From: Candidatus Micrarchaeota archaeon
GTDB taxonomy: Archaea; Iainarchaeota; Iainarchaeia; Iainarchaeales; 1-14-0-10-31-34
DNA length: 49,032 nucleotides
Direction of reading: 5' to 3'
Assembly: GCA_018829335.1 (NCBI GenBank)
Contig: JAHJUD010000046.1
Location: 1-49,032 of the forward strand
Below the pieces are notes generated by a model. The model saw nothing but the letters and a program-made list of their open reading frames with translations, was not told the DNA's origin and made no database searches. Shown piece after piece: positions 10,982 to 42,348 of this stretch; positions within the stretch are counted from its first letter, which is position 1; each line of letters starts with the position of its first letter. The position numbers and the translations under genes are program-made.

Positions 10982-10995
10982 AAAATGAAAATAAG

Positions 10996-11025: not shown

Positions 11026-11101
11026 AAATGCAAATCAAAGAATTAATGAAAAAAATTGAAGTGACAATAAAATGGAATTAAAAAATTTTAAGTGATGTGA
11101 A

Positions 11102-11854: not shown

Positions 11855-11920
11855 TTTAAGTAAAAAAAGAAAATTGAATAAAAAAAGAAAAAATTAATTT
11901 AATTTCTGAAAAAGATTGAA

Positions 11921-12783: not shown

Positions 12784-12825
12784 GTTTTTGGTTTAAACCC
12801 TAAAAGGACAATAACTTATAAAAAC

Positions 12826-13185: not shown

Positions 13186-13282
13186 TTAAACAAGATCCAT
13201 TAAAGTGTTTTTTGAATTCCTTTTCCAAGCTTTCTGCTTTCTTGCCAGTTACAATGTTTTCCAATGAATTATAAAAATCAAT

Positions 13283-13573
13283 ATGCCTTATTTTATTATT
13301 ATGAAAGAAAGAATTGAATTCAAAGTTTTTGGAAGGGTTCAGGGAGTAGGCTTCCGTTTTGCTGTAGTCAGGGCCTCAAAAAAATTTAAAGTAAAAGGTT
13401 TTGTAAAAAACCTTGATTCAGGCGAAGTTTTAGTTATTGCAGAAGGAGAAAAAAAAGAATTAGAAAAATTCATTGAAGAAGTGAAGAATTTTTCTTTTAC
13501 TCAGATAACAAAAGTTGAAGTGCAATGGAAAAAAACATTAAACGAATTTGAAGAATTCAGAATAGAGTATTAA
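13283..13573 (+). CDS. acyP: Acylphosphatase
   Basis: Contains VFGRVQGVGFRF and GFVKNLDSGEVLVIAEG. The likely start is the internal MKERIEF. Confidence 0.85.
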   Translation: MPYFIIMKERIEFKVFGRVQGVGFRFAVVRASKKFKVKGFVKNLDSGEVLVIAEGEKKELEKFIEEVKNFSFTQITKVEVQWKKTLNEFEEFRIEY

Positions 13574-14043
13574 CTATTTTTAACATAAATTGAAACTCTT
13601 TTAGTGAATAACCTTCCGTTTGAAAGAAATCCAATGTTTATTTCATAGTTGCCTGAAGGAATGTCTTCTCTTAAAGCCCTTAAATTAAAATCAAAAGACC
13701 TTGATTCACCTTTTCCTAAAACAGGAACAGAAACTTCTTCAGGAAAAACAACGATTGAATCAGAGTCAACTGCCTTTGCTTTAATTACTGAATCAACTGC
13801 GTCTTCTCCTGAAACGTTCACTACTACAACTTTCATTAATATTTTGTCTTCCTGGCTTAAATCAAAAGAGGATTCAGAAAAAGAAACAAGCAAAGGGTCA
13901 GGCTTAAACAAAGAAGAAAAAGCAATAATCAAAAAAGCAATAATTAGAACTGCAATAACTGCAAGCAAAGGAAACTTTAATTTGTCGTAACCAAAAGAAA
14001 ACTTCGGCATTGAAAGGGATTTTGACTCATCATAAATACTCAT
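13570..14043 (-). CDS. N-terminally membrane-anchored protein with a CARDB/beta-sandwich-like ectodomain
   Basis: 157 aa with one TM (LLAVIAVLIIAFLIIAF), then VVVVNVSGEDA...GESRSFDFNL...GNYEINIGF. Confidence 0.6.
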   Translation of the reverse strand: MSIYDESKSLSMPKFSFGYDKLKFPLLAVIAVLIIAFLIIAFSSLFKPDPLLVSFSESSFDLSQEDKILMKVVVVNVSGEDAVDSVIKAKAVDSDSIVVFPEEVSVPVLGKGESRSFDFNLRALREDIPSGNYEINIGFLSNGRLFTKRVSIYVKNS

Positions 14044-14086
14044 GCATTAAAATAAGGTAAATGGAATTTAAAAAATTAACCTTGAT

Positions 14087-14386
14087 TCATTTCAAAGTAA
14101 ACAAGAAATCGTCTTCTTTTGCGTCAAACAGGCCTGCACGAACTCCGGCATCAAGCCAGGCATGAGCATAAGACAAGGCTGCAAGGGAATTCAACAAATC
14201 ATTTTTTTCTGAAAAATGCTTTGCATCAGAAAAATAATTTTTTGCCATAGACAAAAAATCCACTGCAATTGCTTTTTCTTTCACGGTTAAGTTTTTTTTG
14301 AATTCAATTTTTTGCAGGGCTTTTCCTGTAAGAAAAAAATATCTTTGAACTTTTTCTTCTAACTGAATATTTAAACTTTTATTCAT
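14087..14386 (-). CDS. Small helical protein, possibly DUF357-like
   Basis: 99-aa ORF overlapping the dphB stop by 8 nt. Contains LSYAHAWLDAGVRAGL. The family assignment is from memory only. Confidence 0.5.
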   Translation of the reverse strand: MNKSLNIQLEEKVQRYFFLTGKALQKIEFKKNLTVKEKAIAVDFLSMAKNYFSDAKHFSEKNDLLNSLAALSYAHAWLDAGVRAGLFDAKEDDFLFTLK

Positions 14387-15149
14387 TTTGCTTCCACCCG
14401 CTGAAAATTTTCAGGAATTCTTTTTCATCCTCGCTTAAGTTCCCGCAAACAATCAAAGAATGAGGTTCTTTACCAAAATCAAATTTTTTTATTTCTTGCG
14501 CAGAACCTGCTTTAATTTTCATTTTATCAGAACCAGCCCTTGCAATTCCAATTAAAACAGAACCAGAAATTAGTTTCATGTTTCTTTTTGATTCAATTGA
14601 TTCAAGCAGTTCAATCGCTTCACTTATTTTCATAAACTTTTTTTCCTGAACATCAATGTCCAACAGGCATAAAGTGTGCAGGCCAACAGACTTGTTTTTT
14701 TCTATTGAATCAAAAAATGATTCAGGAGCGTAATTTTCCCTCTGGAAAACAATTGAAACAGTTTTGCCAAACTTGTATTCCTGCAAACCAGTAAAAGAAA
14801 CAAAATTTACGACAGAAATTCCGGGAACAACAAAAAAAGGAATTTTTTTTGCTTTAAGTTCTGCAAGAAGAGAAAGATGAGTTGTTGCAGTCAAAGGATT
14901 TCCAAAAACAAGCAACGCAATATTTTCTTTTTTTGCAGAAGAAAAAAAAGTTAATGCATTTTCTTCAACTTCTTTCCTGCCCAAAGAAAAAATCTTTTTC
15001 CCAATTTCTTTTTCCAGTTCAGAAATTTTTCCTTCAGAATAAAGCGAAGTGTATGCTTCAAGAAAAACTTTTTTGCATTTTTTTATTTTTTCTTTTGCTT
15101 CAAGCGTTAAATTATTTTTTTTTAACCCAATTCCAATCAAGAAAAACAT
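14379..15149 (-). CDS. dphB: Diphthine synthase
   Basis: MFFLIGIGL...EAYTS...LVFGNPLTATTH...PGIS is a tetrapyrrole-methylase fold typical of DphB. The track ORF extends to 15179, but the ATG at 15149 fits homologue N-termini. Confidence 0.85.
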   Translation of the reverse strand: MFFLIGIGLKKNNLTLEAKEKIKKCKKVFLEAYTSLYSEGKISELEKEIGKKIFSLGRKEVEENALTFFSSAKKENIALLVFGNPLTATTHLSLLAELKAKKIPFFVVPGISVVNFVSFTGLQEYKFGKTVSIVFQRENYAPESFFDSIEKNKSVGLHTLCLLDIDVQEKKFMKISEAIELLESIESKRNMKLISGSVLIGIARAGSDKMKIKAGSAQEIKKFDFGKEPHSLIVCGNLSEDEKEFLKIFSGWKQNE

Positions 15150-15245
15150 TTTTTGTACCAAAAATAATGATTGAAACAAAACATTTAAATATAATAAATC
15201 CCTTAATGTGTTAAATAAATTTTTTTTGAAAGGAGGTTTGATTTT

Positions 15246-15308
15246 ATGGCAAAGAAAAAAAAGAAAGCAACAAAGAAGAAAACAGCAAAGAAAAAGAAAA
15301 AAAGATAA
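15246..15308 (+). CDS. 20-aa poly-lysine micropeptide (MAKKKKKATKKKTAKKKKKR), ribosomal L41e-like in character
   Basis: AGGAGG at 15231-15236 lies 9 nt before the ATG. A TAA stop is followed by a perfect hairpin and T-tract. It is too short for the ORF track. Confidence 0.45.
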   Translation: MAKKKKKATKKKTAKKKKKR

Positions 15309-15327
15309 ATGAAAGATTGTTTTCTTG

Positions 15328-15360
15328 GGAAAGAAATTGATTTCTTTCCTCTATTTTTTT
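15328..15360 (+). terminator. Hairpin GGAAAGAAA-TTGA-TTTCTTTCC followed by T7
   Basis: A 9-bp perfect stem and 4-nt loop read directly. A T-tract lies at 15354-15360, just after the micro-ORF. Confidence 0.5.
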
Positions 15361-15391
15361 ATTTTTGATTTTAAAACTGCTTTTTCTGGTT

Positions 15392-16240
15392 TTACAAAAT
15401 GTTTAACCCTAAACTGAACACGTCTCTTATTCCAGGTGCAAAGCCGATTATTATCACAAAAATTTTTATGAAATTCCTGAGTTTTTCGTCTTCTACTTCT
15501 TTGTCAACATACCATAAGACAATCAAAGACAAAAGAACTTTTAATAAAATGAATGCAGCAGGAGAAAAAGTTTCAATAACAAAATTAGACAAAACATGCT
15601 GTTCACTGTAAGTAAAGAAGCTAAGTGCAATAAAAGTTGCAACACCATCTAAAGTCTGACCTGCAAGAACCGCTAAATTCATTTTGCTTGAAAGAACATT
15701 CTGTTTTAATTTGTCATTTAAAAACTTCAAGACAAAAACAATTAATGCAGTTAAACCCAAAACAAAAAAGAATTCAAAAGCATGAGTTAAGTGAAGCAAC
15801 TGGTAAAGAACTACAGGAACACTTAAAATTATTCCAATTCCCATAAAAACTTTCAGTGTTTCTTTCTGGAAACGTTTTGCAATAAACATTGAAATGATTA
15901 AACTGAAGATTGTTAGCAAGCCGACAAGAATGTAAATTCCTGGAGACACAGTATAAAACCCAAAAGTTAAGGGATCAGTTGAACGTTCAAATAAATCAAA
16001 ATAGACTGCAGAATAATTTTCTTCGAAAATCCTGATAGTTGAACCAAACACAATAAAAGGAAAAACTGCTTTAAGAAAATCGAAATCAAAATTAATTCCT
16101 TTCTTTTTAAAGAAAGGGAAAACAACAAAAAAAGCTATTATAAGAAGAATTCCTGCATAAACCAAAGTATTGACTAAATTGTATCCTGAATGGCTTACAA
16201 TAGGATTAATAAAAAATTCATTGATTAAATCAGAAACCAT
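15392..16240 (-). CDS. Multi-pass membrane protein (possibly DUF63-like archaeal family)
   Basis: 282 aa with about 7 hydrophobic segments. The family guess is from memory only. Confidence 0.6.
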   Translation of the reverse strand: MVSDLINEFFINPIVSHSGYNLVNTLVYAGILLIIAFFVVFPFFKKKGINFDFDFLKAVFPFIVFGSTIRIFEENYSAVYFDLFERSTDPLTFGFYTVSPGIYILVGLLTIFSLIISMFIAKRFQKETLKVFMGIGIILSVPVVLYQLLHLTHAFEFFFVLGLTALIVFVLKFLNDKLKQNVLSSKMNLAVLAGQTLDGVATFIALSFFTYSEQHVLSNFVIETFSPAAFILLKVLLSLIVLWYVDKEVEDEKLRNFIKIFVIIIGFAPGIRDVFSLGLNIL

Positions 16241-16331
16241 AAACTAATTAAGCGAAAAACCTTTTTATATTGCACGGAATACAAAGAAAAAACGCAAAAC
16301 AAATAAAAGGAGAATCAAATAATCAGTATAT

Positions 16332-16937
16332 GTGAGTGAATTGGTTTCAGAAAAAGAAATAAAAGAATTCAGAAAGCCTGAATTTCCTGTTGAATCAGTT
16401 TTTTTGAATCGATGGTCTCCAAGGGCAATGTCAGGCGAAAAAATTTCTGACAAAGAATTAATGTCTTTGTTTGAAGCCGCAAAATGGGCTCCTTCTTCTG
16501 CAAACAACCAGCCTTGGAAATTTATTTACGCCAAAAGAGAATCAGAACACTGGCAGAAATTCTTTGATTTGCTTAATTCAGGAAACGCTGAATGGGCAAA
16601 GAATGCTTCAGCTTTAATTGTTGTTGCCTCAAAAACAACTTTTGATTTTAACAACTCATTTTCAAGGACTCATTCATTTGATTCAGGGGCAGCGTGGATG
16701 AGTTTTGCATTGCAGGCTTCAATTAAAGGATTGACCGCACATGGAATGGAAGGATTTGACTATGATAAAGCAAAAAAAGAATTAGAGATTCCAGAAGAAT
16801 ACCAAATAGAAGCAATGATTGCATTAGGAAAAAAAGGAAAAAAAGAAGATTTATCAGAAAAAAATCAGAAAAGAGAATTTCCTTCAGACAGGAAAAAGCT
16901 TTCAGAAACTGTCTTTGAAGGAAAATTTAGAAAATGA
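16332..16937 (+). CDS. Nitroreductase-family protein
   Basis: 201 aa with RWSPRAM and AAKWAPSSANNQPWKF. GTG start. Confidence 0.8.
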   Translation: MSELVSEKEIKEFRKPEFPVESVFLNRWSPRAMSGEKISDKELMSLFEAAKWAPSSANNQPWKFIYAKRESEHWQKFFDLLNSGNAEWAKNASALIVVASKTTFDFNNSFSRTHSFDSGAAWMSFALQASIKGLTAHGMEGFDYDKAKKELEIPEEYQIEAMIALGKKGKKEDLSEKNQKREFPSDRKKLSETVFEGKFRK

Positions 16938-16950
16938 CAGCTGATTTTTT

Positions 16951-17787
16951 ATGGCAGGAAACTTAAAGCAGGCACTGGAAAAAAAACTTTCAGAAAAAGA
17001 AAAAGCTGTTTTTGTTAAAAGCTTTGATTCTTTAGGGAATATTGCAGTAATTGAAATTCCAAAAGAATTAAAGAAAAAAGAACAGCTTATTGGAAACACT
17101 TTACTTGAATTAAATAAAAACTTTAAAACAGTCTGCAAGATTGCAGGGCCACACAAAGGCAAATACCGTTTACAACCATTAAAGATTATTGCAGGCGAAA
17201 AAAATTTTATTGCAGAATACAAAGAGTCAGGATGCAGATTTGTTTTTGATGTAAGAAAAACTTTTTTTTCTCCCCGCTTGTCTAATGAACGATTAAGGAT
17301 TTCAAAACTGATTAAAAAAAATGAAATCATTGGATGCTTTTTTGCAGGAGTCAGCCCGTTTCCTGTTGTTTTCTCAAAAAACTCTGAAATGAAAAAAGCT
17401 TTTGCAGTAGAATTAAACCCTGAAGCAGTAAAAATGATGAAAAAAAATGTTTTAATAAATAAATGCGCAGAAAAAATTACAGTGATTCAAGGAGACGTAA
17501 ACAAGATTGCACGAACTAAACTAAAGAATTCCTGTGACAGGATTGTAATGCCAATGCCTCACGGAGGAGAAAACTTTTTGAAAGAAACCCTGAAAGCATT
17601 AAAGAAAAATGGAGTAATTCATTTTTATCAGGTATTAGAAAAAGAAACTGCTTTTGAAGAAGCAATTGCGCGAGCAAAAAAAGAATGCATTAAACAGAAA
17701 AGAAAATTTGTTTTATTGGATAAAAAAATTGTCAGGCCTTTTAGTGCAACAAAAGTTCAGGTTGTAATTGATTTTAAGGCAGGTTAA
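16951..17787 (+). CDS. trm5: tRNA (guanine37-N1)-methyltransferase Trm5/Taw2 family
   Basis: 278 aa with the Met-10+ pattern: FDSLGNIAVIEIP, FSPRLSNER, FAGVSPF, ELNPEAV and RIVMPMP. Confidence 0.8.
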   Translation: MAGNLKQALEKKLSEKEKAVFVKSFDSLGNIAVIEIPKELKKKEQLIGNTLLELNKNFKTVCKIAGPHKGKYRLQPLKIIAGEKNFIAEYKESGCRFVFDVRKTFFSPRLSNERLRISKLIKKNEIIGCFFAGVSPFPVVFSKNSEMKKAFAVELNPEAVKMMKKNVLINKCAEKITVIQGDVNKIARTKLKNSCDRIVMPMPHGGENFLKETLKALKKNGVIHFYQVLEKETAFEEAIARAKKECIKQKRKFVLLDKKIVRPFSATKVQVVIDFKAG

Positions 17788-17822
17788 AAAATATTTTGGG
17801 TTTATTTTATTCAGGTGTTTAA

Positions 17823-18488
17823 ATGAATTTTGTTTTTTTAGGACAGCAGGGAGCAGGAAAAGGAACTTTTGCACAGCATTTAAGTGAAAAAAAAGGTTTA
17901 ATCCAGATTAGTGCAGGAGATTTATTAAGAGCAGAAGTTAAAGCTGAAACGAATTTAGGAAAAAAAGTTAAAGAAATAATGAATGCAGGAGAACTGGTTT
18001 CAGATGAATTAATTGCAGAAATGATTGAAAAAAGAATTAAAGAAGTAAAAGAAAAAGGATTTATTTTAGACGGTTATCCAAGAACACTAAAACAAGCTGA
18101 ATTATTGGAAGGGATAATGCAAAAACTGAATTTGAAAATTGATGCTGCAGTAAATTTTACTATTGGCGATGCAACTACAATTGAAAGGCTTGGCGGAAGA
18201 AGAACATGCAAGAACTGCAATAAAGTTTATCATATAAAATATTTGCCTCCAAAAATTACAGGAAAATGTGATGCCTGCGGAGGAGAACTAATTACAAGAG
18301 ACGATGACAAGCCTGAAGCAATAAAGAAAAGACTTGAAGCATACAAAAAACAAACAAAACCTTTGATTGATTATTATAAAGAAAAAGGTTTATTGAAAGA
18401 AATTGACGCAGAACCAAAAATAGAAGAAATCAAGCCGGTATTTGACAAAATAATAGAAGAAATTGAAAACAAAAAAATTACTGGTTAA
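17823..18488 (+). CDS. adk: Adenylate kinase (long form with zinc lid)
   Basis: Contains GQQGAGKGT, DGYPRT, and the CKNCNKVYH...CDACGGELITRDDD lid. Confidence 0.9.
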   Translation: MNFVFLGQQGAGKGTFAQHLSEKKGLIQISAGDLLRAEVKAETNLGKKVKEIMNAGELVSDELIAEMIEKRIKEVKEKGFILDGYPRTLKQAELLEGIMQKLNLKIDAAVNFTIGDATTIERLGGRRTCKNCNKVYHIKYLPPKITGKCDACGGELITRDDDKPEAIKKRLEAYKKQTKPLIDYYKEKGLLKEIDAEPKIEEIKPVFDKIIEEIENKKITG

Positions 18489-19020
18489 AGCGATTAATTA
18501 GTTGACTCAACTTTTTATTTATTTCCACTATCATTTTTCTGGTTAAAGCAATTGATTTTAAGGCTTCAGGGGAAATGTCTTTTCTTGATTCAAGAATATC
18601 TATTGAACTTGATTGTCTTATCAAATCAGTTCTTGCTTTCTTTATGGCATTTAAATCAGGTGTGGGAGAATCAAATAAACTTAATACTTTCCTAAAAATC
18701 TGCGAAACATTTTCAGAAATCTGCAACTCTTTTCTAACAATCTGCAAATTTCCTTTAGCAATCTGCAAACGGGTTTTTTCTAACAAAAGCTCACTGGTAA
18801 CTAGATTATTAATCAAGTCTAATTTATGATTTGAATATCTTTTACTTGTATTAGCATTAATTTTTGTAAGAAAATCATTAACAGACATTTTATTTTTTTT
18901 AGAAACCCTTTTCATATTTTCATAAGTTTTTCTAGCACTTTTTCTTAATGCTTTTTGGTAAGCAAGAGTTCCGGGTTTTTTATGAATCATTTTTGCCATA
19001 ACATCACTTAAGTTTATCAA
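18478..19020 (-). CDS. Hypothetical basic, predicted helical protein
   Basis: 180-aa ORF overlapping the nfo stop by 17 nt. No recognisable motif. Confidence 0.5.
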   Translation of the reverse strand: MINLSDVMAKMIHKKPGTLAYQKALRKSARKTYENMKRVSKKNKMSVNDFLTKINANTSKRYSNHKLDLINNLVTSELLLEKTRLQIAKGNLQIVRKELQISENVSQIFRKVLSLFDSPTPDLNAIKKARTDLIRQSSSIDILESRKDISPEALKSIALTRKMIVEINKKLSQLINRFNQ

Positions 19021-19840
19021 AAGTTTTCTTTAAAAGCAAGGCATCTTCCTCTAAATTAGGGCTTTCGCAGATCAGCCAGCCTTTGACTTTAAAGTCTTTC
19101 AATACCTGCAACAAATCTTTGTAATTCATGTCGCTTTCTTTTAGGATTAAATGTTTTCTTTCGCCTTTCTCTGAATAATTTATTCCGCTTAAATGCATGT
19201 GCAGTTCATTTAGAGCTTTTTTTCCTAATTTGTTTTCAACTAAAGAAAGGTTTTCAGTGAATTCTTCTAAAGAATTGTTTTTTCCTGTACTTCGGGCATG
19301 CAAATGAGAAAAATCAATGCAAGGCTGAACTAATTCAAATTCTTCTGATAAAAAAACAATTTCTTCTAAAGAACCCCATTGAGTTGCTTTGCCGGTTGTT
19401 TCAGGCCTAAGCCAGATTTTGATTCCTACATCAATTAATTTTTTTTCGATTTCTTTTATTCCTTCTTTAATTTTTTGAAAAACTTGTTTTGGTTCTTGTT
19501 TCATATAAAATCCTGCATGAAAAGTAACTGATTTGGCTCCGCACAAAAAACCGATTTTAGCTGAAGAAAAAATATAGTTAACTGAAGCATAATATGTTTT
19601 TTTTTCAACTGAATTCAGGTTAATGTAAAAAGGCGCATGAACAGTTAATTCAATTGATTCTTGTGCTGCAATTTTTTTTATTTCCGGAGCTTTTTCTCTT
19701 GAAATATTTATTGAACGCACAAATTCCAGTTCCATGCATCCAAGTTTTAGTTCTTTTAATCTTTTTATTCCGTTTTCTGTTGAACGGTTTTTTGTGCTTA
19801 AAGGAATTCCAGCTGTTCCAAACAATAATTCTTTTGGCAT
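19004..19840 (-). CDS. nfo: Endonuclease IV / AP endonuclease family 2 (TIM barrel)
   Basis: 278 aa with TVHAPFYINL, TFHAGFY, LRPETTGK, DFSHLHA and HMHLSG metal-ligand motifs. Confidence 0.8.
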   Translation of the reverse strand: MPKELLFGTAGIPLSTKNRSTENGIKRLKELKLGCMELEFVRSINISREKAPEIKKIAAQESIELTVHAPFYINLNSVEKKTYYASVNYIFSSAKIGFLCGAKSVTFHAGFYMKQEPKQVFQKIKEGIKEIEKKLIDVGIKIWLRPETTGKATQWGSLEEIVFLSEEFELVQPCIDFSHLHARSTGKNNSLEEFTENLSLVENKLGKKALNELHMHLSGINYSEKGERKHLILKESDMNYKDLLQVLKDFKVKGWLICESPNLEEDALLLKKTFDKLK

Positions 19841-19945
19841 GAAATAAATAAAGAAAGTTAGGTTTTAATTGGTTTTGAATGATAAAATGAATCAGTTCAA
19901 TAAGTTTTAATTGATTTTGAATTTTATTTTGTTGAGTGGCATAAA

Positions 19946-20848
19946 ATGATTGAAGTATTAATTGTCGGAAGCATTGGATTAGACGACATTGAAACACCTT
20001 TTGGAAAAATAATTAACACTTTAGGCGGCTCTGCAGTTTATTCTTCTATTGCTTCATCTTTTTTTGCTCCAACAGGAATTGTAGGAGTAATAGGCGAAGA
20101 TTTTCCAAAAGAACACATGGATTTAATTGAAAGAAGGAGAATTGACACTAAAGGAATAGAAGAATTAGAAGGAAAAACTTTTCGTTGGAGCGGAAAATAC
20201 GAGTTTGACTTGAATACAGCACAAACACTTAAAACAGAATTAAATGTAATAGAAAACTTTAAACCAAAAATTCCAGAAGAATACAAAAACGCAGAATATG
20301 TTTTTTTAGGCAACATTGACCCTGAACTGCAGTTAAGTGTGCTTGAACAAATAAAAAACCCTAAATTAGTTGTAAGCGATACAATGAATTACTGGATTGA
20401 AAGCAAAAGAGAAAAAGTAATGGAAGTAATAAATGCAGTTGACATTGCTTTAATGAATGACAGCGAAGCAAGAGAATTATTTAAGACACCAAATTTAGTT
20501 AAAGCAGCAAAAGAAATACTCAAATTAAATTCAGATTATGCAATAATAAAAAAAGGCGAACACGGCGCAGTAATGTTTACTGACAACAAACATTTTTCTG
20601 TTCCAGGTTATCCTTTAGAAGACATTAAAGATCCTACAGGAGCTGGAGACAGTTTTGCAGGAGCCTTAACAGGATTTCTTGCACAAACAAAAGAATTAAA
20701 TGACTCCAATTTAAGGAAAGCAATGGTTTATGGGTCAGTTTTAGCTTCACTGGAAGTAGAAGGATTAGGAGTAACTAACATGGATTTTATTACTCAATTC
20801 AGGATAAAGGAAAGGTTTGAGGAATTCAAGGAAATCGTAAAGTTTTAA
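19946..20848 (+). CDS. PfkB-family carbohydrate/nucleoside kinase
   Basis: 300 aa with GGSAVY and the DPTGAGDSFAGAL signature. Confidence 0.8.
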   Translation: MIEVLIVGSIGLDDIETPFGKIINTLGGSAVYSSIASSFFAPTGIVGVIGEDFPKEHMDLIERRRIDTKGIEELEGKTFRWSGKYEFDLNTAQTLKTELNVIENFKPKIPEEYKNAEYVFLGNIDPELQLSVLEQIKNPKLVVSDTMNYWIESKREKVMEVINAVDIALMNDSEARELFKTPNLVKAAKEILKLNSDYAIIKKGEHGAVMFTDNKHFSVPGYPLEDIKDPTGAGDSFAGALTGFLAQTKELNDSNLRKAMVYGSVLASLEVEGLGVTNMDFITQFRIKERFEEFKEIVKF

Positions 20849-30289: not shown

Positions 30290-30819
30290 TTATTTTTTTT
30301 CTCCTACAAAGATGGAAACAAATCTTCCTTCTGAAATAACTTTCAACACTTCTTCCGAAGAAAATACTCTTCCATTCATGCAAACATAAATTCCTGGTTT
30401 AAGATCCTGAACTTTTGCAATGGCATAACCTAACTAAAAGAAGCATCTGAGGGTGCAAAGCCCGTAAGCGGAAGCATTGAAGCAGTAAACATTATGATTT
30501 GGTCATTTCTCTTTAGATTTTATTTAATATATCTCGCAGTATCAGACATAGTATAAGTTCCATGAGTAATAATAATTCTCTTGCTTTGGCTTTTTTCAAT
30601 AGTTTTTAAAGCTTTCTTTAAGTCATTTGGAGTAAGTTGTCTGCTGTCTTTCATACAAACTTGAGTGAATTTAGATTCTTCATACAATTTTAGGCTTTTA
30701 ATGTATTGTGGAATGACTGAATTCTTTAATAAAGCAGTAGTATCAACTGTCGGATCATAAAATGAATCAATTGTACCTCCCATTAAAATAAAGTGAATGA
30801 ATTTAGTTTTTGAACTCAT
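30290..30819 (-). pseudogene. Decayed short L-asparaginase-like gene (one in-frame TAA plus one frameshift)
   Basis: aa 1-99 read ...ILMGGTIDS...IIITHGTYTMSDTARYIK, then TAA (30520-30522). The same frame continues NLKRNDQIIMFTASMLPLTGFAPSDASFS and stops. A shifted frame then gives LGYAIAKVQDLKPGIYVCMNGRVFSSEEVLKVISEGRFVSIFVGEKK. This order matches asparaginase N-domain motifs (GGTI, HGTDT, TGsxxP..SD). Confidence 0.7.
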
Positions 30820-30841: not shown

Positions 30842-31555
30842 TCACAGTTTTATTCCTTCCCATGGAACTTCTTCTTTGCTTCTTACTATAATGCCGTTTT
30901 CTCCTATTTCAAACGGATGAGGAGACATTGACTGGTTTGTTCCCCTCATTTTTCTTACAAAAATTGTTCTATGAGGAGGATGCAAATACAATATCATTAC
31001 TCCGTCTACAACAAATTCTTCTACGCCAAAAGCACTTATCTGGTTTTTGTCTCCTTTTGTTTCTGAAGTCAAAAGAGTAGTGCAGTCTAATTTTTTTAAT
31101 CCGTCAGTAAACTGGAATAAAGTTTTTCTCATTGCAGCTGAACCTCGAATCCACATTGCAAGAGAAGTAGTTGAATCAACAACCAATCTTGTTGCACCAA
31201 CTTTTTCTATGTATTCTGAAATAACATTTAATTCTTCTAATACTTCTTCTTCAATGTTTTCTGAATCTTTTTCAGCTAAATTTAATTTGTAAATCTTGAA
31301 TAATTCTTTTTCCTGAAGTTTTTTTATGTCCCAGCGGAAGTTTTCCATATCCCAAGTAATGTTTTTCAGGTTTGTTTCTAAAGTAACATATAAGCCTGGC
31401 TCATCGTATTTTGTTGCTCCATTGTATAAAAATTGTGTTGCAAAAATTGTTTTTCCTGTTCCTGCGCCTCCTGAAACAAGAATTGAAGCGCCTTTTGGAA
31501 CGCCTCCTTGAATTAATTCATCTAATCCTTCAATACCTGTCGGAACCCTTTTCAT
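30842..31555 (-). CDS. KaiC/RadA-like RecA-superfamily ATPase
   Basis: 237 aa with GIEGLDELIQGGVPKGASILVSGGAGTGKT (Walker A) and RLVVDS (Walker B). Confidence 0.8.
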   Translation of the reverse strand: MKRVPTGIEGLDELIQGGVPKGASILVSGGAGTGKTIFATQFLYNGATKYDEPGLYVTLETNLKNITWDMENFRWDIKKLQEKELFKIYKLNLAEKDSENIEEEVLEELNVISEYIEKVGATRLVVDSTTSLAMWIRGSAAMRKTLFQFTDGLKKLDCTTLLTSETKGDKNQISAFGVEEFVVDGVMILYLHPPHRTIFVRKMRGTNQSMSPHPFEIGENGIIVRSKEEVPWEGIKL

Positions 31556-31656: not shown

Positions 31657-32346
31657 ATGCATATTTTTATAATGCAGAATTCGGTTGTATTAGGAGACAC
31701 TAATTTAGTTTCATTAATTGACATACCTGAATGGAAAAGCATTTTGCTTGACTTGGTTAGCTCTGAAAAAATGGATCCATGGAATATTGACATTATTTTA
31801 CTTTCAGAAAAATACTTGCAAAAAATTAATTCAATGGAAAAAATGGATTTAAGGGTTCCGGCAAATGCAATTCTTGCTTCTTCAATTCTTTTAAGGGCAA
31901 AGGCAAAGCTTTTGAAGATTCCTTCAATTGAAGAAGAAACAGAAAAAAATGGCGTGGATAAAATAATTGAAGAATTTATTCCGGAATTAAAGGATATGAG
32001 AACTTTAAGGGAAGGAAAAATTTCTTTGGATGAATTAGTTGACGCAATTGAAAGCATTGTTGAACAGACTAAAACAAAAAAAATGAAGTTAAGGGAAATG
32101 CCTGAACTCAAATTCCATGTTCCTGTAGCAGGAGAAAACATTACAGAAAAAATGAAGAAAGTTTATGCAAGAATAAAAGAACTGGCTGACTCTCAAGGAT
32201 TAGTGTTATTTTCAAATCTTACAGAAAATTTAAATGACCACTTGATTGAAACATTTATTCCATTGCTTTTTTTAAACGACGAAGACAAAATCAATTTATG
32301 GCAGGAAGAATGGTTTGGCGAAATATTCATTAGCTTAGTAAAATAG
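31657..32346 (+). CDS. scpA: Segregation and condensation protein A (kleisin), with 3' end remodelled by an insertion
   Basis: Contains DPWNIDIILLSEKYLQKI...PANAILASSILLRAKAKLL. Its last 47 nt are repeated at 34999-35043. Confidence 0.75.
   Translation: MHIFIMQNSVVLGDTNLVSLIDIPEWKSILLDLVSSEKMDPWNIDIILLSEKYLQKINSMEKMDLRVPANAILASSILLRAKAKLLKIPSIEEETEKNGVDKIIEEFIPELKDMRTLREGKISLDELVDAIESIVEQTKTKKMKLREMPELKFHVPVAGENITEKMKKVYARIKELADSQGLVLFSNLTENLNDHLIETFIPLLFLNDEDKINLWQEEWFGEIFISLVK
32292..32337 (+). repeat. att-like repeat copy A (scpA 3' end; core AAATATTCATTAGCTTA at 32321-32337)
   Basis: CAATTTATGGCAGGAAGAATGGTTTGGCGAAATATTCATTAGCTTA matches 34999-35043 with 3 mismatches. Similarity ends right after the core. 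Confidence 0.75.
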
Positions 32347-32469
32347 TATATTTTAAACTCTTGCTGTCACACCATAATAAATAGGCGATGAAAAAAACAT
32401 CTCCGTATAGTTTCAAGTAACAGAAAGGTATTTAAGCGAAAAATATCATTATATTCAAGGTAGAGTTTT

Positions 32470-32679
32470 ATGTCAAATGAAAAAGAGACCGAGCTGTTGA
32501 GGAGTAAATTCTTAAAGACTTTAGCCAAAGTATCTGATAGCCTACGAGACGAAATCATTGCAGTTATAGACGACGAGCCATTTGACTGGTCAACGACCAA
32601 TGTTGAAGTAAGAGGTAAGACAAAGAAAGGTGACCAGATACTTAGGCTGATGGACCAGATTGGATTGCTGGGTGATTGA
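32470..32679 (+). CDS. 69-aa hypothetical protein P1 (first gene of the protease operon)
   Basis: ATG ORF whose TGA stop (32677-32679) lies 1 nt before the probable P2 start. No recognised family. Confidence 0.6.
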   Translation: MSNEKETELLRSKFLKTLAKVSDSLRDEIIAVIDDEPFDWSTTNVEVRGKTKKGDQILRLMDQIGLLGD

Positions 32680-32680
32680 A

Positions 32681-32890
32681 GTGGATGAAAAATATTTGAA
32701 GAAGCTTGTGGTTATGAGATTAAATGCTGTTCCTCAGGATGTGAGTTTTTCTATTGGCAAATATGGGGATTATACCAGAAACCAGCTTATTGAAGAGGTT
32801 GAAAAAGGCACTGAAGTAGGAAAGGCCGCTACGGAAATGGAACTCAGTTTTTTAAGGAAACTACCAAAGTTTGCAAAGATGATTGAATGA
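32681..32890 (+). CDS. 69-aa hypothetical protein P2 (weak paralogue of P1)
   Basis: GTG at 32681 is preceded by GGTGAT, which matches the archaeal anti-SD. The track gives a TTG at 32660 in the same frame. The stop overlaps the P3 ATG (ATGA). Confidence 0.55.
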   Translation: MDEKYLKKLVVMRLNAVPQDVSFSIGKYGDYTRNQLIEEVEKGTEVGKAATEMELSFLRKLPKFAKMIE

Positions 32891-33528
32891 CAAGACTATT
32901 TATTACGAGGCCGCAACACGACAAGGGAACATATTACCTCTATATTTGGAGCAAGAAAATAATAGACTCTGCTGAAGACCACGGTTGGATAGTTAACAAA
33001 TCAGACGGGCCAAAAGCAACAAGAGCAGAAGTGCAAAGCAGGCTTGAAAAGAATTCAGCCGATTTTGTGTTCTTTAACGGTCATGGAAACGAAAGCGAAA
33101 TGAGCGGACACAATCTTGAAACCATTTTGGATGAATCGTCAAGCCATTTGCTTAAAAATACAATAACCTTTACCAGGGCCTGTAACTGCGTCGTCAAACT
33201 GGGGAAATCAGCTGTTGACAAAGGATGTAAGTCTTTTATTGGTTACGCAGGCAAGTTTTGGATTCCAAGAATACACAAATTTGAATTAACTCCATTGAAA
33301 GATATGGCGGCCAAGCCAGTTCTTGAGGTATCAAACCAAATCCCTTTATCAATAATAAAAAATTGCACGGCCTCTGAAGCTGTTGATTCAGCGAGGGCAC
33401 TGACAATCAAATACATTTCAAAGCTTATCTTATCTAGAGAACCATATAACAGGGCAGCACTAAAGGCTCTAAGCCAAAACGATGACTCTTTGGCCTACAA
33501 AGGAAACGGCGATGCAAAAATAGGATAA
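32887..33528 (+). CDS. Minimal caspase/gingipain/CHAT-like (clan CD) cysteine peptidase
   Basis: 213 aa with ADFVFFNGH66GNE, TITFTRAC99NC and KGCKSFIGYAG. The alternating beta/alpha order is that of the caspase-hemoglobinase fold. This is motif-level recognition only. Confidence 0.6.
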   Translation: MTRLFITRPQHDKGTYYLYIWSKKIIDSAEDHGWIVNKSDGPKATRAEVQSRLEKNSADFVFFNGHGNESEMSGHNLETILDESSSHLLKNTITFTRACNCVVKLGKSAVDKGCKSFIGYAGKFWIPRIHKFELTPLKDMAAKPVLEVSNQIPLSIIKNCTASEAVDSARALTIKYISKLILSREPYNRAALKALSQNDDSLAYKGNGDAKIG

Positions 33529-33602
33529 TTACATAGAGCCTACTGTATGACAACAAAAGTAGAAGAGCTGATAAGATGACAGCTAATACACAATTCTAAA
33601 AA

Positions 33603-33642
33603 AAATATTCATCAGCTTAAGAGAAACAGAATACGCCAAACA
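33603..33642 (+). repeat. att-like repeat copy B (core AAATATTCATCAGCTTA at 33603-33619 plus right flank)
   Basis: AAATATTCATCAGCTTAAGAGAAACAGAA..TACGCCAAACA aligns with 35027-35072. It has no similarity to copies A or C to the left of the core. Confidence 0.65.
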
Positions 33643-33676
33643 AAAGATTTATATTTAAGGAAAACGTATTAAATTT

Positions 33677-33898
33677 ATGAAAAAAGAAAACCAAATTGGG
33701 GTTATTTTTGTAATACTTGCGCCGGTTTTATTTCTTATTTTAGCAGTTTTATGCCCAATGTTTAGTTCCCCAAAATTCATTGAAAGCTTAGCCCAAGGAT
33801 CATCATTTAATCTCGGTTGCATGGGAATTCCTTTAATTGTTCCAATAGTTTCTATTTTGATTGCAGTTTATTTTTTCTGGAAAGCAAAAAAAGCATAA
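33677..33898 (+). CDS. 73-aa two-TM membrane protein
   Basis: Two hydrophobic helices. First gene of cassette 2. Confidence 0.5.
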   Translation: MKKENQIGVIFVILAPVLFLILAVLCPMFSSPKFIESLAQGSSFNLGCMGIPLIVPIVSILIAVYFFWKAKKA

Positions 33899-33915
33899 AG
33901 AAGAAACCAAAATTT

Positions 33916-34022
33916 TTTATTGCCCAAACACCTTCAAAAAAGCAATAATTTTACTGCCCAAAAACATTAATATTTTTCTTTTTTAGAGGCAAATTTAAGC
34001 TAATTTTTACTGCCCAAACACA
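33916..34022 (+). promoter_or_regulatory. Three direct repeats TTTAYTGCCCAAA(A)ACA upstream of the fic gene
   Basis: Copies lie at 33916-33930, 33949-33966 and 34004-34022. The last ends 34 nt before ATG 34056. The GC-rich core TGCCCAAA stands out in AT-rich spacer. Confidence 0.5.
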
Positions 34023-34055
34023 ACTTATTTAAACTGTTTTATTCAAGCTTTGTTT

Positions 34056-34991
34056 ATGAGTTATATTGAAAAGAAAGAAAAAAACAGAGAAACATACTGT
34101 TATTTTGTGAAGAAATTCTCGTTTATGGGCAAACAGCATAAAATAAGCAAGTATATGGGAAAAAACCCGTTAGTTTCAAAAGAAGAATACCTGCAGAAGA
34201 ACCTTGAAAGGATAACAGAACAGGAACATGAATTAAAAAAACCATTTCTTCCAAAAGAACTTGCATTTGAAAGATTACTCGAAAAAACAGAAAAGCATGC
34301 AATCTATTTAAACAATTTAATGGAAGCAAAACAAAACAAGTTAGTTGTCGAAAAACAAATAGTTAAAGAATTTGTATTTAATTCAAATAACATTGAAGGC
34401 TCAAAACTGCCAAAAAAAGAACTGGAAAAAATATTTGAAAACAGGAAAAGCTCTTATGCAAACAAAAACGAAATACTGGAAGCAGAAAATTCAATCAAGG
34501 CATTTAAGTACCTGAAAGACGAATTTTATTTTTCTTTGCCTCAAATAAAAAAGCTTTACAAAATTCTCACTAAAAGCTTAGTAATGGAAACAGGCGATCA
34601 TTACCCAAAAGGATTCAGGAAAACAGAACTAGTAGTAGGAAACGAAAAAACAATTGAACCAGAACAAATTAAACCGGAACTGAAAAAACTGCTTGACTGG
34701 CATAAAAAAAACAAGAAAAGTTATCCATTAAAGCTTGCTTTTGATTTTCATTCAAGATATGAAACCATTCACCCTTTCCGTGATGCAAACGGGAGAACCG
34801 GAAGGCTGATAACGAACAAAATATTAATGCAAAACAAGTATCCTTTAATGATTGTATTCAAAGACAACAAAAAAGCTTACTTTAATGCAATAAAAAAAGC
34901 AAGAGAAAACAAAAACAAAGAATACTATCATTTCATGCTAAACCAGCAGCTAAAATCATATAAATTAACAAAAAGAATCTCAGAACAATAA
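34056..34991 (+). CDS. fic: Fic-domain protein (AMPylase family) with intramolecular inhibitory motif
   Basis: Fic motif HPFRDANGRTGR (34770-34805). An upstream SNNIEG (34383-34400) fits the (S/T)xxxE(G/N) inhibitory helix. The track start is a TTG at 34050. Confidence 0.85.
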   Translation: MSYIEKKEKNRETYCYFVKKFSFMGKQHKISKYMGKNPLVSKEEYLQKNLERITEQEHELKKPFLPKELAFERLLEKTEKHAIYLNNLMEAKQNKLVVEKQIVKEFVFNSNNIEGSKLPKKELEKIFENRKSSYANKNEILEAENSIKAFKYLKDEFYFSLPQIKKLYKILTKSLVMETGDHYPKGFRKTELVVGNEKTIEPEQIKPELKKLLDWHKKNKKSYPLKLAFDFHSRYETIHPFRDANGRTGRLITNKILMQNKYPLMIVFKDNKKAYFNAIKKARENKNKEYYHFMLNQQLKSYKLTKRISEQ

Positions 34992-34998
34992 AAAAATT

Positions 34999-35072
34999 AA
35001 TTTATGGCAGGAAAAATGGTTCGGCGAAATATTCATTAGCTTAAGAGAAGCAGAAAAAGAATAAGCCAAACA
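34999..35072 (+). repeat. att-like repeat copy C (displaced original scpA 3' end; core at 35027-35043)
   Basis: In the scpA frame it reads INLWQEKWFGEIFISLREAEKE-stop. Its left half matches copy A and its right half matches copy B. Confidence 0.75.
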
Positions 35073-35267: not shown

Positions 35268-37640
35268 TTATGTTTCCCTTAAATAGCCCCAGTTATGCAG
35301 CCTGTCAGAGTCTTCAAACCATCGGTCTCCAATATCTTTCCTGTAATACATATGGGGAATTATTATATTCTTTATTTTAGAATAAACTTGTTGTTGAGCC
35401 TGTTTCATTGTCTGGCCTGAACCACAAACAATAAGAATTACTCCGGAATTTCCTGTTACAACCCACTCACCATTAACTAATTTAACGTCTTCAATGTGAA
35501 CGCTTTCAGTTCCTTTCTTGAAAAAAATAACTGAATCCTTTGATTTAACCTCAAAAGTTTCAGGGTCATCAAAAGGAAAAGGAGGAACAACAATTCTTAC
35601 CCCAATCTGAAAACCATTATGAACTTTAAGTTTAGGGTTTTCTCCTTTAGCTAAATCAAACAAAAACTGGCCAATAGGAGTAATCATTGCATGCTCTTGA
35701 ATGCTAATAGTAGGATAACCAAAACGGGAAGTAAACTCTAAAGGATAAATTCCATAATTATTAACCATACAATTAATGTCAATATAACCAACAAAATTTT
35801 CTTTAGCTAAAGTTCCCTCAAACTTCTTTAAAGTGTTATTGAATATTTTGTTTGGCACACTCCAAAACATCGCTGTATTGCCGCACCAGCAGGGCTTTCC
35901 GTTTCTTCTGACAAACATTATGTGGTTTTTTACTGTAGCACAATAAACTTTTCCTTTGTATTCAGTTTTTTTTATGTCTTTTTTATCAATCCAGGACTCA
36001 AGTTTTTTTACTCTTTCATGGACTTCAAACTGAATTCTGGAAGAATCAGCAAAATGGTCAACTATCCAAGTCTTGTCATTTCTTTTTCTTTCCTTTATTA
36101 TTCCCACTCTTCCGATTTTTAACAGCAATTCCTGAATGCCGTCAGCAAGCATTTTAGATGAAGTATAAAAAATCCTGTAACCTTTCATTTGTGTTCCGTC
36201 ACCTAAAGCAAACCATTCAAGAAAAACAGAAATCTGTCTTGGCCTTAAACTCTTAACAAATTCCGGAACAAATTTTTGGGGGGCTTTTCCAAAAACACTA
36301 AAATAAGAAGAAAGCTGTTTATCGTAAATATTAAACCCTGAATCAGTTTCAGAAAACTTAAAATCAAGTTTTTCAAGAAGAGATTTAATTTTATTATAAA
36401 ACTCCTTTTTTTTGCTCTGAGAAATATTTACTTTGTTGTTTGACGCACTTCCTTCAGCAATATAAATTCCCATGAAAGCAAGCCAGTCATCCATCAAAAT
36501 TTTTATTTCACCTGTTTCATGCAATACAACCTGTCTTCCTTCATAATGTCCTAACTGAACTGACGGAATAATAAAATATTCTTCTTCTGTTCCAATCCAT
36601 TTGCCTGTTCTTTTAATTACTGACTGGTATTCCAAATCTTTTGCCTTGACAAAATTAAAAGAATTTTTTTTATTTCTTGCATTCCACTGGCCTGAAACAT
36701 ACATATTATGGTCAGGTGTAACCATTAAATCAAGAGTCTGGTTTTTAATTGAAATTAATTCATTATGATGATCAAAAACAACAATTTCTTCCGGTGCATT
36801 AAATTCAATTACATCATTTTCAGGATTTAAAGTGCAAATTTTGTCTTCATAATTCAATTCCCTGAAAAACTTCCAGCCCATTTCAGTCAAGACTTCTGTT
36901 TCTTCATCATAGCAGCCCATTTCTCCTGTGGAAGGCCCTAAATTTCCAGGAAAAAGTTTTTTGTGTTCAAAGTTTACATTAATTGGATAAATAAATTCTT
37001 TTCCATTAAAGAAAGCGCCAACAGCAATTTCCACTCCATTAACTCTTTTCTGTAACTGAAACAAAGGAATCTTTTTTGACCACGCCTTATTGTAATCGCT
37101 TAAAACCTGAATAACATCTTTTCCGTCGTCTTCTTCTCCAATAAACAAAAGCCCTTTAATATTTTGTGCTTCACCGCTTGGCTTAATGACATATTGCCCT
37201 GGATTTGCCTTTACAAAATCAATTGCTTCCTCAAAAGAAGTAAAATCCCTGTAAGGCAAAATAGGAACTCCGTGCTTTTTCAATTCTTCTTGGCCAAAAG
37301 CCCTGTCATCTTCAAGCATGTCAGTATAAGGGGTTCCGCCAACAACAAGTTTTCCTGCATCCCTTAATTTTTTTGCTTTAGTGCCATGGCCTAAAACATC
37401 ATCAAAAATTATTACATCAGCCCAGTCAACTTCTTTTTCCCAGTCGTCAACTTTCGGCACAAAACCATCTGCAACTTCCGCGTCTTCAGGGTTTTCAACA
37501 AAAAGCTTTGCATTATGGCCTTCTTTTACAACATGCCATGCAATGTCGGCAATTAAGGCATCAATTGAAACAAACAAAAAATTTTTTGGTTCAAAACCAT
37601 TTTTTAAGTTTGAATTGTTCTTTGAATTTTTTTGTTCCAT
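35268..37640 (-). CDS. purD: Phosphoribosylamine-glycine ligase (PurD-like ATP-grasp) interrupted by an intein
   Basis: The exteins are 242 + 202 aa. The N-extein ends GPSTGEMG and the C-extein starts TAMFW, compared with the PurD motif GPNTGGMGAYSP. Confidence 0.75.
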   Translation of the reverse strand: MEQKNSKNNSNLKNGFEPKNFLFVSIDALIADIAWHVVKEGHNAKLFVENPEDAEVADGFVPKVDDWEKEVDWADVIIFDDVLGHGTKAKKLRDAGKLVVGGTPYTDMLEDDRAFGQEELKKHGVPILPYRDFTSFEEAIDFVKANPGQYVIKPSGEAQNIKGLLFIGEEDDGKDVIQVLSDYNKAWSKKIPLFQLQKRVNGVEIAVGAFFNGKEFIYPINVNFEHKKLFPGNLGPSTGEMGCYDEETEVLTEMGWKFFRELNYEDKICTLNPENDVIEFNAPEEIVVFDHHNELISIKNQTLDLMVTPDHNMYVSGQWNARNKKNSFNFVKAKDLEYQSVIKRTGKWIGTEEEYFIIPSVQLGHYEGRQVVLHETGEIKILMDDWLAFMGIYIAEGSASNNKVNISQSKKKEFYNKIKSLLEKLDFKFSETDSGFNIYDKQLSSYFSVFGKAPQKFVPEFVKSLRPRQISVFLEWFALGDGTQMKGYRIFYTSSKMLADGIQELLLKIGRVGIIKERKRNDKTWIVDHFADSSRIQFEVHERVKKLESWIDKKDIKKTEYKGKVYCATVKNHIMFVRRNGKPCWCGNTAMFWSVPNKIFNNTLKKFEGTLAKENFVGYIDINCMVNNYGIYPLEFTSRFGYPTISIQEHAMITPIGQFLFDLAKGENPKLKVHNGFQIGVRIVVPPFPFDDPETFEVKSKDSVIFFKKGTESVHIEDVKLVNGEWVVTGNSGVILIVCGSGQTMKQAQQQVYSKIKNIIIPHMYYRKDIGDRWFEDSDRLHNWGYLRET
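35877..36914 (-). mobile_element. 346-aa intein with LAGLIDADG homing-endonuclease domain
   Basis: Cys1 in CYDEETEVLTEMG (block A), VTPDH (block B, TxxH), LAGLIDADG motifs LAFMGIYIAEGSA and FLEWFALGDGT, and a C-terminal ...CWCGN followed by Thr +1. Codon positions were checked on the sequence. Confidence 0.85.
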
Positions 37641-41909: not shown

Positions 41910-42137
41910 ATGAGGAAAAAAATGCAAAAAAAATTTTCAGCTGTAATAACAAGAGAAGAGAAATGGTTTGTTTCTTACTGCCCTGAATTAGGTGTTGCAT
42001 CACAAGGAAAAACAAAAACAACTGCTTTAAAGAATTTAAAAGAAGCAGTTGAACTTTATCTGGAAGAAGATCCTATTAGAATTCCTGTTTTAAGGGAAGT
42101 AACTGAATTCAAAGCCAAGGTAATGGCAGATGCCTAA
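41910..42137 (+). CDS. hicB: HicB-family antitoxin
   Basis: 75 aa reading FSAVITREEKWFVSYCPELGVASQGKTKTTALKNLKEAVELYLEE (UPF0150/HicB fold pattern). It overlaps hicA by 8 nt. Confidence 0.75.
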   Translation: MRKKMQKKFSAVITREEKWFVSYCPELGVASQGKTKTTALKNLKEAVELYLEEDPIRIPVLREVTEFKAKVMADA

Positions 42138-42348
42138 AACTGTTTCTGGACTAAAACTAGTAAAATTCCTGAAAAAGAAAGGATTTGAAATTTACAGCAG
42201 AAAAGGCTCTCATGTAAAAATGATTTCAATTGAAAGGAACACAAAAACAATAATCCCAATGCACAAAGAAATTGCCGTTGGAACCCTTAACAGTATTTTA
42301 AAACAGGCAGAATTAAGTGAAGAAGAAATAAAGGAATTATTAGAGTAA
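42130..42348 (+). CDS. hicA: HicA-family mRNA interferase toxin
   Basis: 72 aa reading SGLKLVKFLKKKGFEIYSRKGSHVKM...IIPMHKEIAVGTLNSILKQA (YcfA/HicA pattern with a conserved His). Confidence 0.8.
   Translation: MPKTVSGLKLVKFLKKKGFEIYSRKGSHVKMISIERNTKTIIPMHKEIAVGTLNSILKQAELSEEEIKELLE

Follow-up and report, generated by a model that had tools for sequence, protein, structure and literature searches.

The 3' end of scpA, the gene for the kleisin ScpA, very probably serves as an attachment (att) site for elements with tyrosine integrases, and two integrase-less cassettes appear to have inserted there one after the other in the 49,032-nucleotide (nt) stretch of contig JAHJUD010000046.1 studied here (the window). 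The host is a groundwater archaeon; the window carries the archaeal markers TFIIB, L35Ae, and FEN1, and the homologues of its ScpA are labelled Diapherotrites/Iainarchaeum. A first-pass annotation of this DNA had proposed successive site-specific insertions at a single site in scpA, and this proposal is supported by a related genome in which one of the insertions is missing (locus L016), by repeated use of the same site in other genomes, and by integrases located at the site.

In the proposed mechanism, the last conserved ScpA codons (FGEIFIS[L]) would be the chromosomal att site for tyrosine-integrase proviruses and integrated plasmids of Iainarchaeota. An incoming element would exchange the short variable tail of ScpA for its own, displace the former tail downstream, and regenerate the att site, so that elements can pile up in tandem. 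Cassette 2 (33620-35043), with a membrane peptide and a Fic protein between flanking repeats of about 80 nt of the scpA end, would have arrived first. Cassette 1 (32338-33619), with two small proteins and a minimal caspase-like protease, would have followed at the regenerated site. Recombination would fall within the GAAATATTCAT region.

Three copies of the scpA end and the order of insertion

The 17-nt core AAATATTCATYAGCTTA matches the window at 32321, 33603, and 35027, all on the plus strand, and nowhere else even when two mismatches are allowed. The chance expectation is 0.14 matches, and none of 100 shuffles reached three. The three copies (A, B, and C) are thus those of the first-pass annotation, which had itself named similarity no better than expected for a low-complexity composition as the result that would speak against it; the shuffles place the repeats beyond chance. 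Copies A and C belong to a 51-nt repeat (32287-32337 and 34993-35043; 94% identity, three mismatches), while B and C have their right flank in common (29 nt at 93% and 28 nt at 82%, with a 6-nt indel between them). The earlier description had likewise paired A with C by the left flank and B with C by the right flank. Direct repeats that include the target core flank the insertions, with an overlap of 17 nt between A and B and of about 80 nt between A plus B and C. The same annotation had described the last 46 nt of scpA as repeated downstream. The repeat itself was confirmed and is longer (51 nt with three mismatches), whereas the start given for its second copy, 34999, is off by one base, and a further 9 nt (GTAAAATAG) lie between 32337 and the actual end of scpA.

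The scpA gene (31657-32346, plus strand) was identified by a Pfam SMC_ScpA match (1.6e-13) and by alignment with its 20 best homologues, in which ScpA is conserved through ...WFGEIFIS[L] and then ends in a short variable tail. Copy A (32287-32337, plus strand, core 32321-32337) is the 3' coding sequence of scpA, codes for the conserved W-F-G-E-I-F-I-S-L motif, and would be the left att site (attL) of cassette 1. The present terminus, ISLVK-stop, reads in translation as first reported, and the C-terminus ...EIFISL-VK-stop comes from cassette 1. Copy C (34993-35072, plus strand, core 35027-35043) is a second scpA 3' end of about 80 nt and would be the right att site (attR) of the whole array. 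It reads in frame as INLWQEKWFGEIFISLREAEKE-stop, and its tail, REAEKE-stop, ends at 35064. The two closest ScpA homologues (89% to 90% identity) end in ISLREAE like the tail at copy C, in agreement with the earlier view of this tail as the displaced original C-terminus. Copy B (33603-33647, plus strand, core 33603-33619) would be both the attR of cassette 1 and the left junction of cassette 2. After its core comes a former scpA tail, now decayed (RETEY..., its stop lost), which ends in GCCAAACA. Degenerate GCCAAACA(C) copies end the B and the C tails.

The order of the insertions is indicated decisively by locus L016, whose ScpA is 90% identical to that of the window. Here scpA runs through the core, in the C variant of copy B, into AGGGAAGCAGAATAA (REAE-stop), and genes homologous to those for the membrane peptide and Fic follow at once, without cassette 1; this stretch has 78% nt identity to window 33603-34594. 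Because L016 lacks cassette 1, copy B is the scpA tail that served until the arrival of cassette 1, which is the younger, inner insertion. The B tail has meanwhile lost six bases and, through a change of TAA to TAC, its stop. An empty site in a relative, which the first-pass annotation had suggested looking for, is thus present for cassette 1. For cassette 2 it is found only in part, as loci L017-L021 and L022 are without Fic but have other content in its place. More distant relatives (81% ScpA identity) have a VWA gene between scpA and a conserved 105-aa/IscS/NifU/ScpB block (aa, amino acids), indicating that the region 3' of scpA is variable in general.

Reuse of the scpA site and its integrases in relatives

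The scpA end is used repeatedly among relatives. We took 160 scpA loci from reference genomes and metagenomes, scanned them for extra FGEIF[IV]-coding sequence (TTYGGNGARATHTTYRT, at most one mismatch), and counted copies in the 82 distinct loci whose ScpA shares at least 40% identity with that of the window. Downstream of scpA on the same strand there are 23 extra copies (5.9 per 100 kb), against a single copy upstream (0.19 per 100 kb) and a single one on the opposite strand (0.11 per 100 kb), that is, a downstream rate about 30 to 50 times that of the controls. At least one extra downstream copy is present in 17 of the 57 loci having at least 1 kb of downstream sequence, and none occurs in loci whose ScpA is more distant (Micrarchaeota and others). 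Tandem arrays occur in L027 (three copies), L056/L135 (up to four), L102 (three), and L182 (three), and single cassettes flanked by exact 20- to 27-nt repeats in L034 and L061. The second copy in L117 runs on into the sequence found directly 3' of scpA in L032 and L111; these loci are a further filled and empty pair. Contigs with an Iainarchaeota-type scpA (L034, L038, and L042) are binned in metagenome-assembled genomes (MAGs) labelled Chloroflexota or Falkowbacteria, probably through mis-binning.

Right ends of cassettes within one array have a 20- to 45-nt arm in common that is not scpA sequence (copies 2 and 3 in both L056/L135 and L102), which argues that the att site is recognized by a protein and not by plain homology. 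Cargo at these other sites includes HEPN and MNT, MazF/PemK, HicAB, ParE, MazE, DUF4258, and DUF6036 genes and an occasional metabolic gene (asparaginase). Toxin-antitoxin modules make up most of it, and such addiction and defence genes are the usual cargo of mobile islands.

Tyrosine integrases directly follow the scpA site in at least four relatives (L102, L036, L191, and L190). In L102 (ScpA 77% identical) the gene for a 530-aa tyrosine recombinase (PF00589, 1.4e-15) begins 32 nt past the stop of scpA and lies in a 9.5-kb element (10728-20133) with att copies at 10661 and 20133. The element also encodes a D5-type primase-helicase (DUF5906/D5_N), a HEPN_Swt1/Abi-like protein, and several winged helix-turn-helix regulators. 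No capsid genes were recognized among its genes, and for this reason it looks like an integrated plasmid and not a virus. Next to it stands a 475-nt mini-cassette encoding a homologue of the membrane peptide of cassette 2. The integrases of L036 and L191, 88% identical to each other and 38% to that of L102, follow scpA directly, within proviruses that have a terminase, and L190 has the same integrase type after an att copy inside an array. These integrases carry a C-terminal zinc ribbon, and their homologues are widespread in DPANN and other archaea. All of the integrase genes are intact, so the att site lies upstream of the integrase gene and not within it. An idea based on Xer/dif (integrative mobile elements exploiting Xer, IMEX) was dropped after these dedicated integrases were found at the site.

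The enzymes and the form of the repeats also bear on insertion by a transposon or casposon, in which the 17-nt repeat would be a target-site duplication. Casposons do insert in the 3' ends of protein genes, in tandem, with 14- to 15-nt duplications (PMC6563490). However, no Cas1 or transposase is encoded by the window genes, there are no terminal inverted repeats beyond a 7-nt match at chance level, the repeat is not of fixed length but varies from 17 to 80 nt between cases, and the enzyme associated with the site is a tyrosine integrase. The lack of Cas1 or transposase and of inverted repeats, together with the variable repeat length, excludes this explanation, which we regard as hardly credible.

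An integron-type cassette array would also gather small, toxin-antitoxin-rich cassettes at one locus, with the integrase outside the cassettes. Against this stand the absence of an IntI-type integrase or attI beside the array, cassette boundaries that are direct repeats of coding sequence, and the absence of attC-like hairpins at the cassette ends (DNA folding z-scores of -0.65 to +0.74). Without IntI, attI, or attC-like folding, an integron is excluded on its defining features, and we consider it very improbable.

Cassette 1 and its counterpart in L182

Cassette 1 appears to be a deletion derivative of a provirus of the L036/L191 type that kept the integrase-proximal arm. Its left arm (32338-32420, plus strand), defined by alignment with relatives, consists of the VK-stop tail, the TTTAAACTCTTGCTG arm motif, and the remnant of an integrase start, an open reading frame (ORF) of 11 codons (stop counted) with its ATG at 32388 (32388-32420). 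To the right of copy A, the first 60 nt read GTAAAATAGTATATTTTAAACTCTTGCTGTCA...GGCGATGAAAA. This arm aligns with the core-to-integrase arm of L036, L191, L044, and L190 up to and including the ATG and about four codons. Beyond that point the integrase-bearing elements continue into the gene and the window diverges from them, while the cassettes of the window and of L182 stay alike. The VK-stop tail of ScpA is the signature of this arm and recurs in L036, L124, L042, L038, L037, and L191. Cassette 1 thus resembles a cis-mobilizable element (CIME), which descends from an autonomous element that had this att specificity, as the left-arm homology indicates here, and has lost its integration genes while keeping both att sites, with the caveat that the 5' half of copy B is mutated. 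The window cassettes hold no integrase gene, only the 11-codon remnant.

The array in L182 consists of scpA, a 147-aa cassette, the three genes of cassette 1 (the trio, between att copies 2 and 3), and the native tail. Its trio cassette is integrase-less, has the same breakpoint, and matches window 32314-33618 end to end at 83% nt identity. Between the window and L182, nt identity is 57% to 65% in host genes (AliA 50%), 81% to 87% in the trio genes, and 78% in the Fic gene of cassette 2. The corresponding aa identities are 50% to 61% (AliA 40%), 78% to 85%, and 78%, and the third-position identities, taken at conserved residues, are 42% to 59%, 68% to 80%, and 63%. A composition check that the first-pass annotation had advised sets cassette 1 apart, with 38% GC against 32% in the window and 30% in cassette 2. 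The 38% of the trio is close to the 39% of the L182 genome and unlike the window, and the Fic gene has 33% GC in L182 and 30% in the window. Because the identity of both cassettes exceeds that of the host genes and the GC content agrees both ways, both cassettes seem to have moved between the two lineages. Cassette 1 would have done so after losing its integrase, which implies that the integrase was supplied in trans. Transfer of both cassettes, of cassette 1 with such an integrase, is the simplest reading of these comparisons. We infer that integrase-less cassettes were moved by the integrase of a co-resident element, in a CIME- or satellite-like lifestyle.

Alternatively, the cassettes could be pure relics: full elements would have integrated and decayed in situ, the integrase-less forms would never have moved, and the likeness between the window and L182 would reflect transfer of an intact element followed by parallel deletion. 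The retained start of an integrase in cassette 1, the decay of copy B, and the lack of excision junctions in the low-depth Logan contigs of 12 runs fit this history, and loss of the integrase after integration is documented in archaea (PMC8371274). On the other hand, the deletion breakpoint is the same in the trio cassettes of the window and L182, and the two are collinear over their whole length at 83% identity in hosts that are only 57% to 65% identical, which makes two independent identical deletions unlikely. An in-situ history is possible for the window copy, but it leaves the shared breakpoint and the high identity to L182 unexplained; as a general account we judge it unlikely. The first-pass annotation had offered mobilization in trans and relics as alternatives, and each holds in part, as cassette 1 keeps the start of an integrase, a relic, yet appears to have spread without an integrase between divergent hosts. 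The window copy of cassette 1 is now probably decaying and may no longer be excisable.

Several observations weigh against trans-mobilized, site-specific insertion. No called gene of the window, nor any in the approximately 60 kb examined of the 84-kb source contig, matches the integrase family PF00589. Excision or circle junctions were not seen in the Logan contigs of the 12 runs, which are low-depth contigs and not reads. The 5' half of copy B, TTTGGAGAG in L182, is mutated to CTAAAAAAA in the window, and cassette 1 may be immobile here because this copy has lost the TTYGGNGA half of the site. The right arm of the L182 cassette is of the CCTAAAGGAGAATTC type; the right arms of the L036 and L191 proviruses lie outside the compared DNA, and the arm comparison is one of left arms. 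The trio also occurs away from scpA, in L186, and for that reason is a functional module in its own right, and no att copy was detected downstream of Fic in L182. Finally, about 80 nt of scpA-like sequence flank cassette 2, on both sides of the core, and Campbell-type homologous recombination would explain these repeats equally well.

In that last case, DNA with a captured scpA 3' end would have been integrated by the host machinery without any integrase, an explanation that concerns mainly cassette 2. One depth-2 X11 contig (35072 to AAAG to 33648; its short side only 49 nt) fits an allele free of cassette 1 with an intact REAEKE tail, and this low-depth contig suggests that the B and C tails were once nearly identical, which speaks for such recombination. 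By contrast, cassette 1 and many others have only 17 to 27 nt in common with the target, the element arms are conserved and not scpA-like (L056/L135; L102 copies 2 and 3), and the site has dedicated integrases. Homologous recombination is an improbable source of the array as a whole, though a possible one for cassette 2, and site-specific integration is the reading that we retain.

Apart from the X11 contig, the joints at the locus in the 12 runs are only short, spurious, or derived from relatives. Logan contig L011, which spans exactly 32286-35010, was considered as a circular form and rejected as an effect of the assembly graph. In several runs, contigs tend to end at 32285/32315, since the conserved scpA stretch is also present in co-occurring relatives and makes the graph branch there. 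A pattern search of IMG/VR for a free attP (core plus left arm) returned nothing, and a scan of the same database with an integrase profile gave only two distant matches (27% to 29% identity). Independent assemblies also break within the cassette 1 region (32490-33750): contig JAHJZN010000210 of GCA_018826425.1 ends at 33040, and in ERR2191545 Logan contigs stop at 32492, 32801/33753, and 33724 and show short alternative branches, which hints at strain variation or repeats within the cassette.

Cargo, neighbouring genes, and known systems

The cargo of cassette 1 was first described as a protease trio, which is overstated, since two of its three proteins have no recognizable family (Pfam, PADLOC, PHROGs) and only the third is protease-like. 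The first gene (32470-32679, plus strand) encodes a 69-aa protein that is conserved together with the 213-aa gene in L182 and L186; it has no Pfam or PHROG match, and PADLOC returned only a weak match to Csx23 (1.2e-3). The second (32672-32890, plus strand), supported by gene calls in L011 and L182, has a GTG start and encodes a 72-aa protein with 85% aa identity to the L182 copy. The third (32887-33528, plus strand) encodes a 213-aa protein of a family with 30 members, which we read as a predicted minimal caspase-like cysteine protease of clan CD. Its NGHG motif (His66) and Cys99 are invariant in 27 homologues, and its AlphaFold model (pLDDT 95.7) has the best Foldseek matches to SAVED-CHAT, gingipain R, and caspases (E values of 7e-6 to 1e-4; TMq of 0.47 to 0.64 for 8tl0, 1cvr, and 6ns7). 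This predicted caspase-like fold with a conserved His-Cys dyad is that of clan CD (caspase/gingipain/CHAT); the Pfam C25 match (0.059) is below threshold.

Cassette 2 carries a membrane peptide and a Fic protein, as first annotated. The 73-aa peptide (33677-33898, plus strand) has two transmembrane segments and homologues in L016 (51% identity), where it adjoins scpA directly, and in L102 (45%), within the att-bounded mini-cassette. The 311-aa Fic protein (34056-34991, plus strand) has the motif HPFRDANGRTGR, matches PF02661 (1.4e-15) and the PADLOC models PDC-S04 (2.9e-36) and SoFic (1.3e-24), and reads HPFRDANGR in translation, in agreement with the Fic consensus HxFx(D/E)(A/G)N(G/K)R. Upstream of it, at 33914-34021 on the plus strand, a repeat search found three direct copies of TTTTTAYTGCCCAAAMAC, which are kept upstream of Fic in L016 and L182 and stand directly after scpA in L022. 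This region is probably regulatory, and the repeats are possibly an operator, a promoter, or part of an att arm.

No recombinase, transposase, or tRNA target had been noticed in the window at first; Pfam scans of the called genes gave no integrase or transposase, and a tRNA search of the window was empty. Rfam RNA families were likewise not found across 31-36 kb. A KaiC/RadA-like ATPase of the RecA superfamily (30842-31555, minus strand) is the divergent neighbour of scpA, and the pairing is kept in L016 and L017-L021; its place beside the hotspot is probably merely synteny. Beside it, a 99-aa ORF (30520-30819, minus strand) matches only the N-terminal part of the asparaginase family, and a full 418-aa asparaginase-like gene (L034, 1102-2355) is cargo of the scpA-site cassette of L034. 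The 790-aa purD (GARS) gene (35268-37640, minus strand) contains an intein that bears a LAGLIDADG homing-endonuclease domain (Pfam GARS_A, GARS_C, LAGLIDADG_3, and Intein_splicing), and there is an intein in MCM of L182 and an apparent one in NifU of L022. A toxin-antitoxin module away from the scpA hotspot is the DUF7387 and HicA-toxin pair (about 41922-42348, plus strand) that stands between the genes for RNase HII and ribosomal protein L35Ae.

The closest known parallel is the accretion of CIMEs and of elements that are integrative as well as conjugative (ICEs) of the ICESt1/ICESt3 type at the 3' end of fda in Streptococcus thermophilus (Pavlovic 2004; Bellanger 2011; reviewed in PMC5704250). 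In that model an element integrates at the 3' end of a gene and decays to an att-flanked unit without an integrase, and further elements integrate in tandem (PMC5704250). Like these systems, the scpA arrays involve a tyrosine recombinase, the 3' end of a housekeeping protein gene as target, integrase-less units that keep attL and attR, tandem growth through a regenerated site, and possible mobilization by a related integrase. Unlike them, they occur in an archaeal (DPANN) host, their autonomous partners are proviruses and plasmids and not conjugative elements, their cassettes are much smaller (0.4 to 3 kb, in arrays of up to three to four units), and their mobilization is proposed from sequence comparison.

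Integrated elements of archaea provide a second parallel. In Thaumarchaeota, 14 of 68 elements lie in the 3'-distal parts of protein genes and tandem arrays occur (PMC6563490), and loss of the integrase after integration has been reported for archaeal integrated elements (PMC8371274). The att site in the end of a protein gene, the new stop provided by the element, the reuse of the site in arrays, and the loss of the integrase all recur at scpA. However, scpA is not among the reported targets and Iainarchaeota/DPANN are not covered by those reports; the reported archaeal arrays consist of full elements or casposons, whereas here integrase-less mini-cassettes are common to divergent hosts.

The scpA arrays also resemble chromosomal integrons as a fixed platform that gathers small toxin-antitoxin and defence cassettes with the recombinase outside the cassettes. 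In place of IntI, attI, and attC hairpins, the site is a double-stranded direct repeat of scpA coding sequence, and no resident platform integrase is seen in the window. Genomic islands at ssrA of Dehalococcoides reportedly carry their own integrases. These islands are similar to the scpA arrays in integrating at a single-copy conserved gene and different in that this is an RNA gene (PMC3146451).

In the open-access literature we found no paper that reports scpA as a target or describes such arrays in Iainarchaeota/DPANN. The mechanism is known, from bacterial CIME accretion and archaeal integrated elements; the target gene, the lineage and phylum, and the arrays of mini-cassettes are new. It is conceivable, though we hold it to be doubtful, that the scpA 3' end acts more broadly as an integron-like capture platform without a resident integrase, at which mini-cassettes (an att core plus short arms, with toxin-antitoxin, defence, or protease genes as cargo) are excised, exchanged among divergent DPANN, and inserted anew into arrays. 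The integrases would then be those of proviruses or plasmids that share the att specificity and are present only transiently.

Gene gain in the tiny genomes of DPANN is little understood, and the scpA locus is a conserved hotspot that is easily recognized from one ScpA motif. Proviruses, plasmids, and integrase-less cassettes gather there and are exchanged between lineages with about 60% nucleotide identity. The site offers a simple sequence signature for mobile DNA and for defence and toxin-antitoxin cargo in Iainarchaeota MAGs, as well as integrase/att pairs that are candidates for genetic tools in uncultivated archaea. It also flags a small, uncharacterized caspase-like protease operon that travels as a cassette, and it is a natural test case for the trans-mobilization of decayed elements in archaea.

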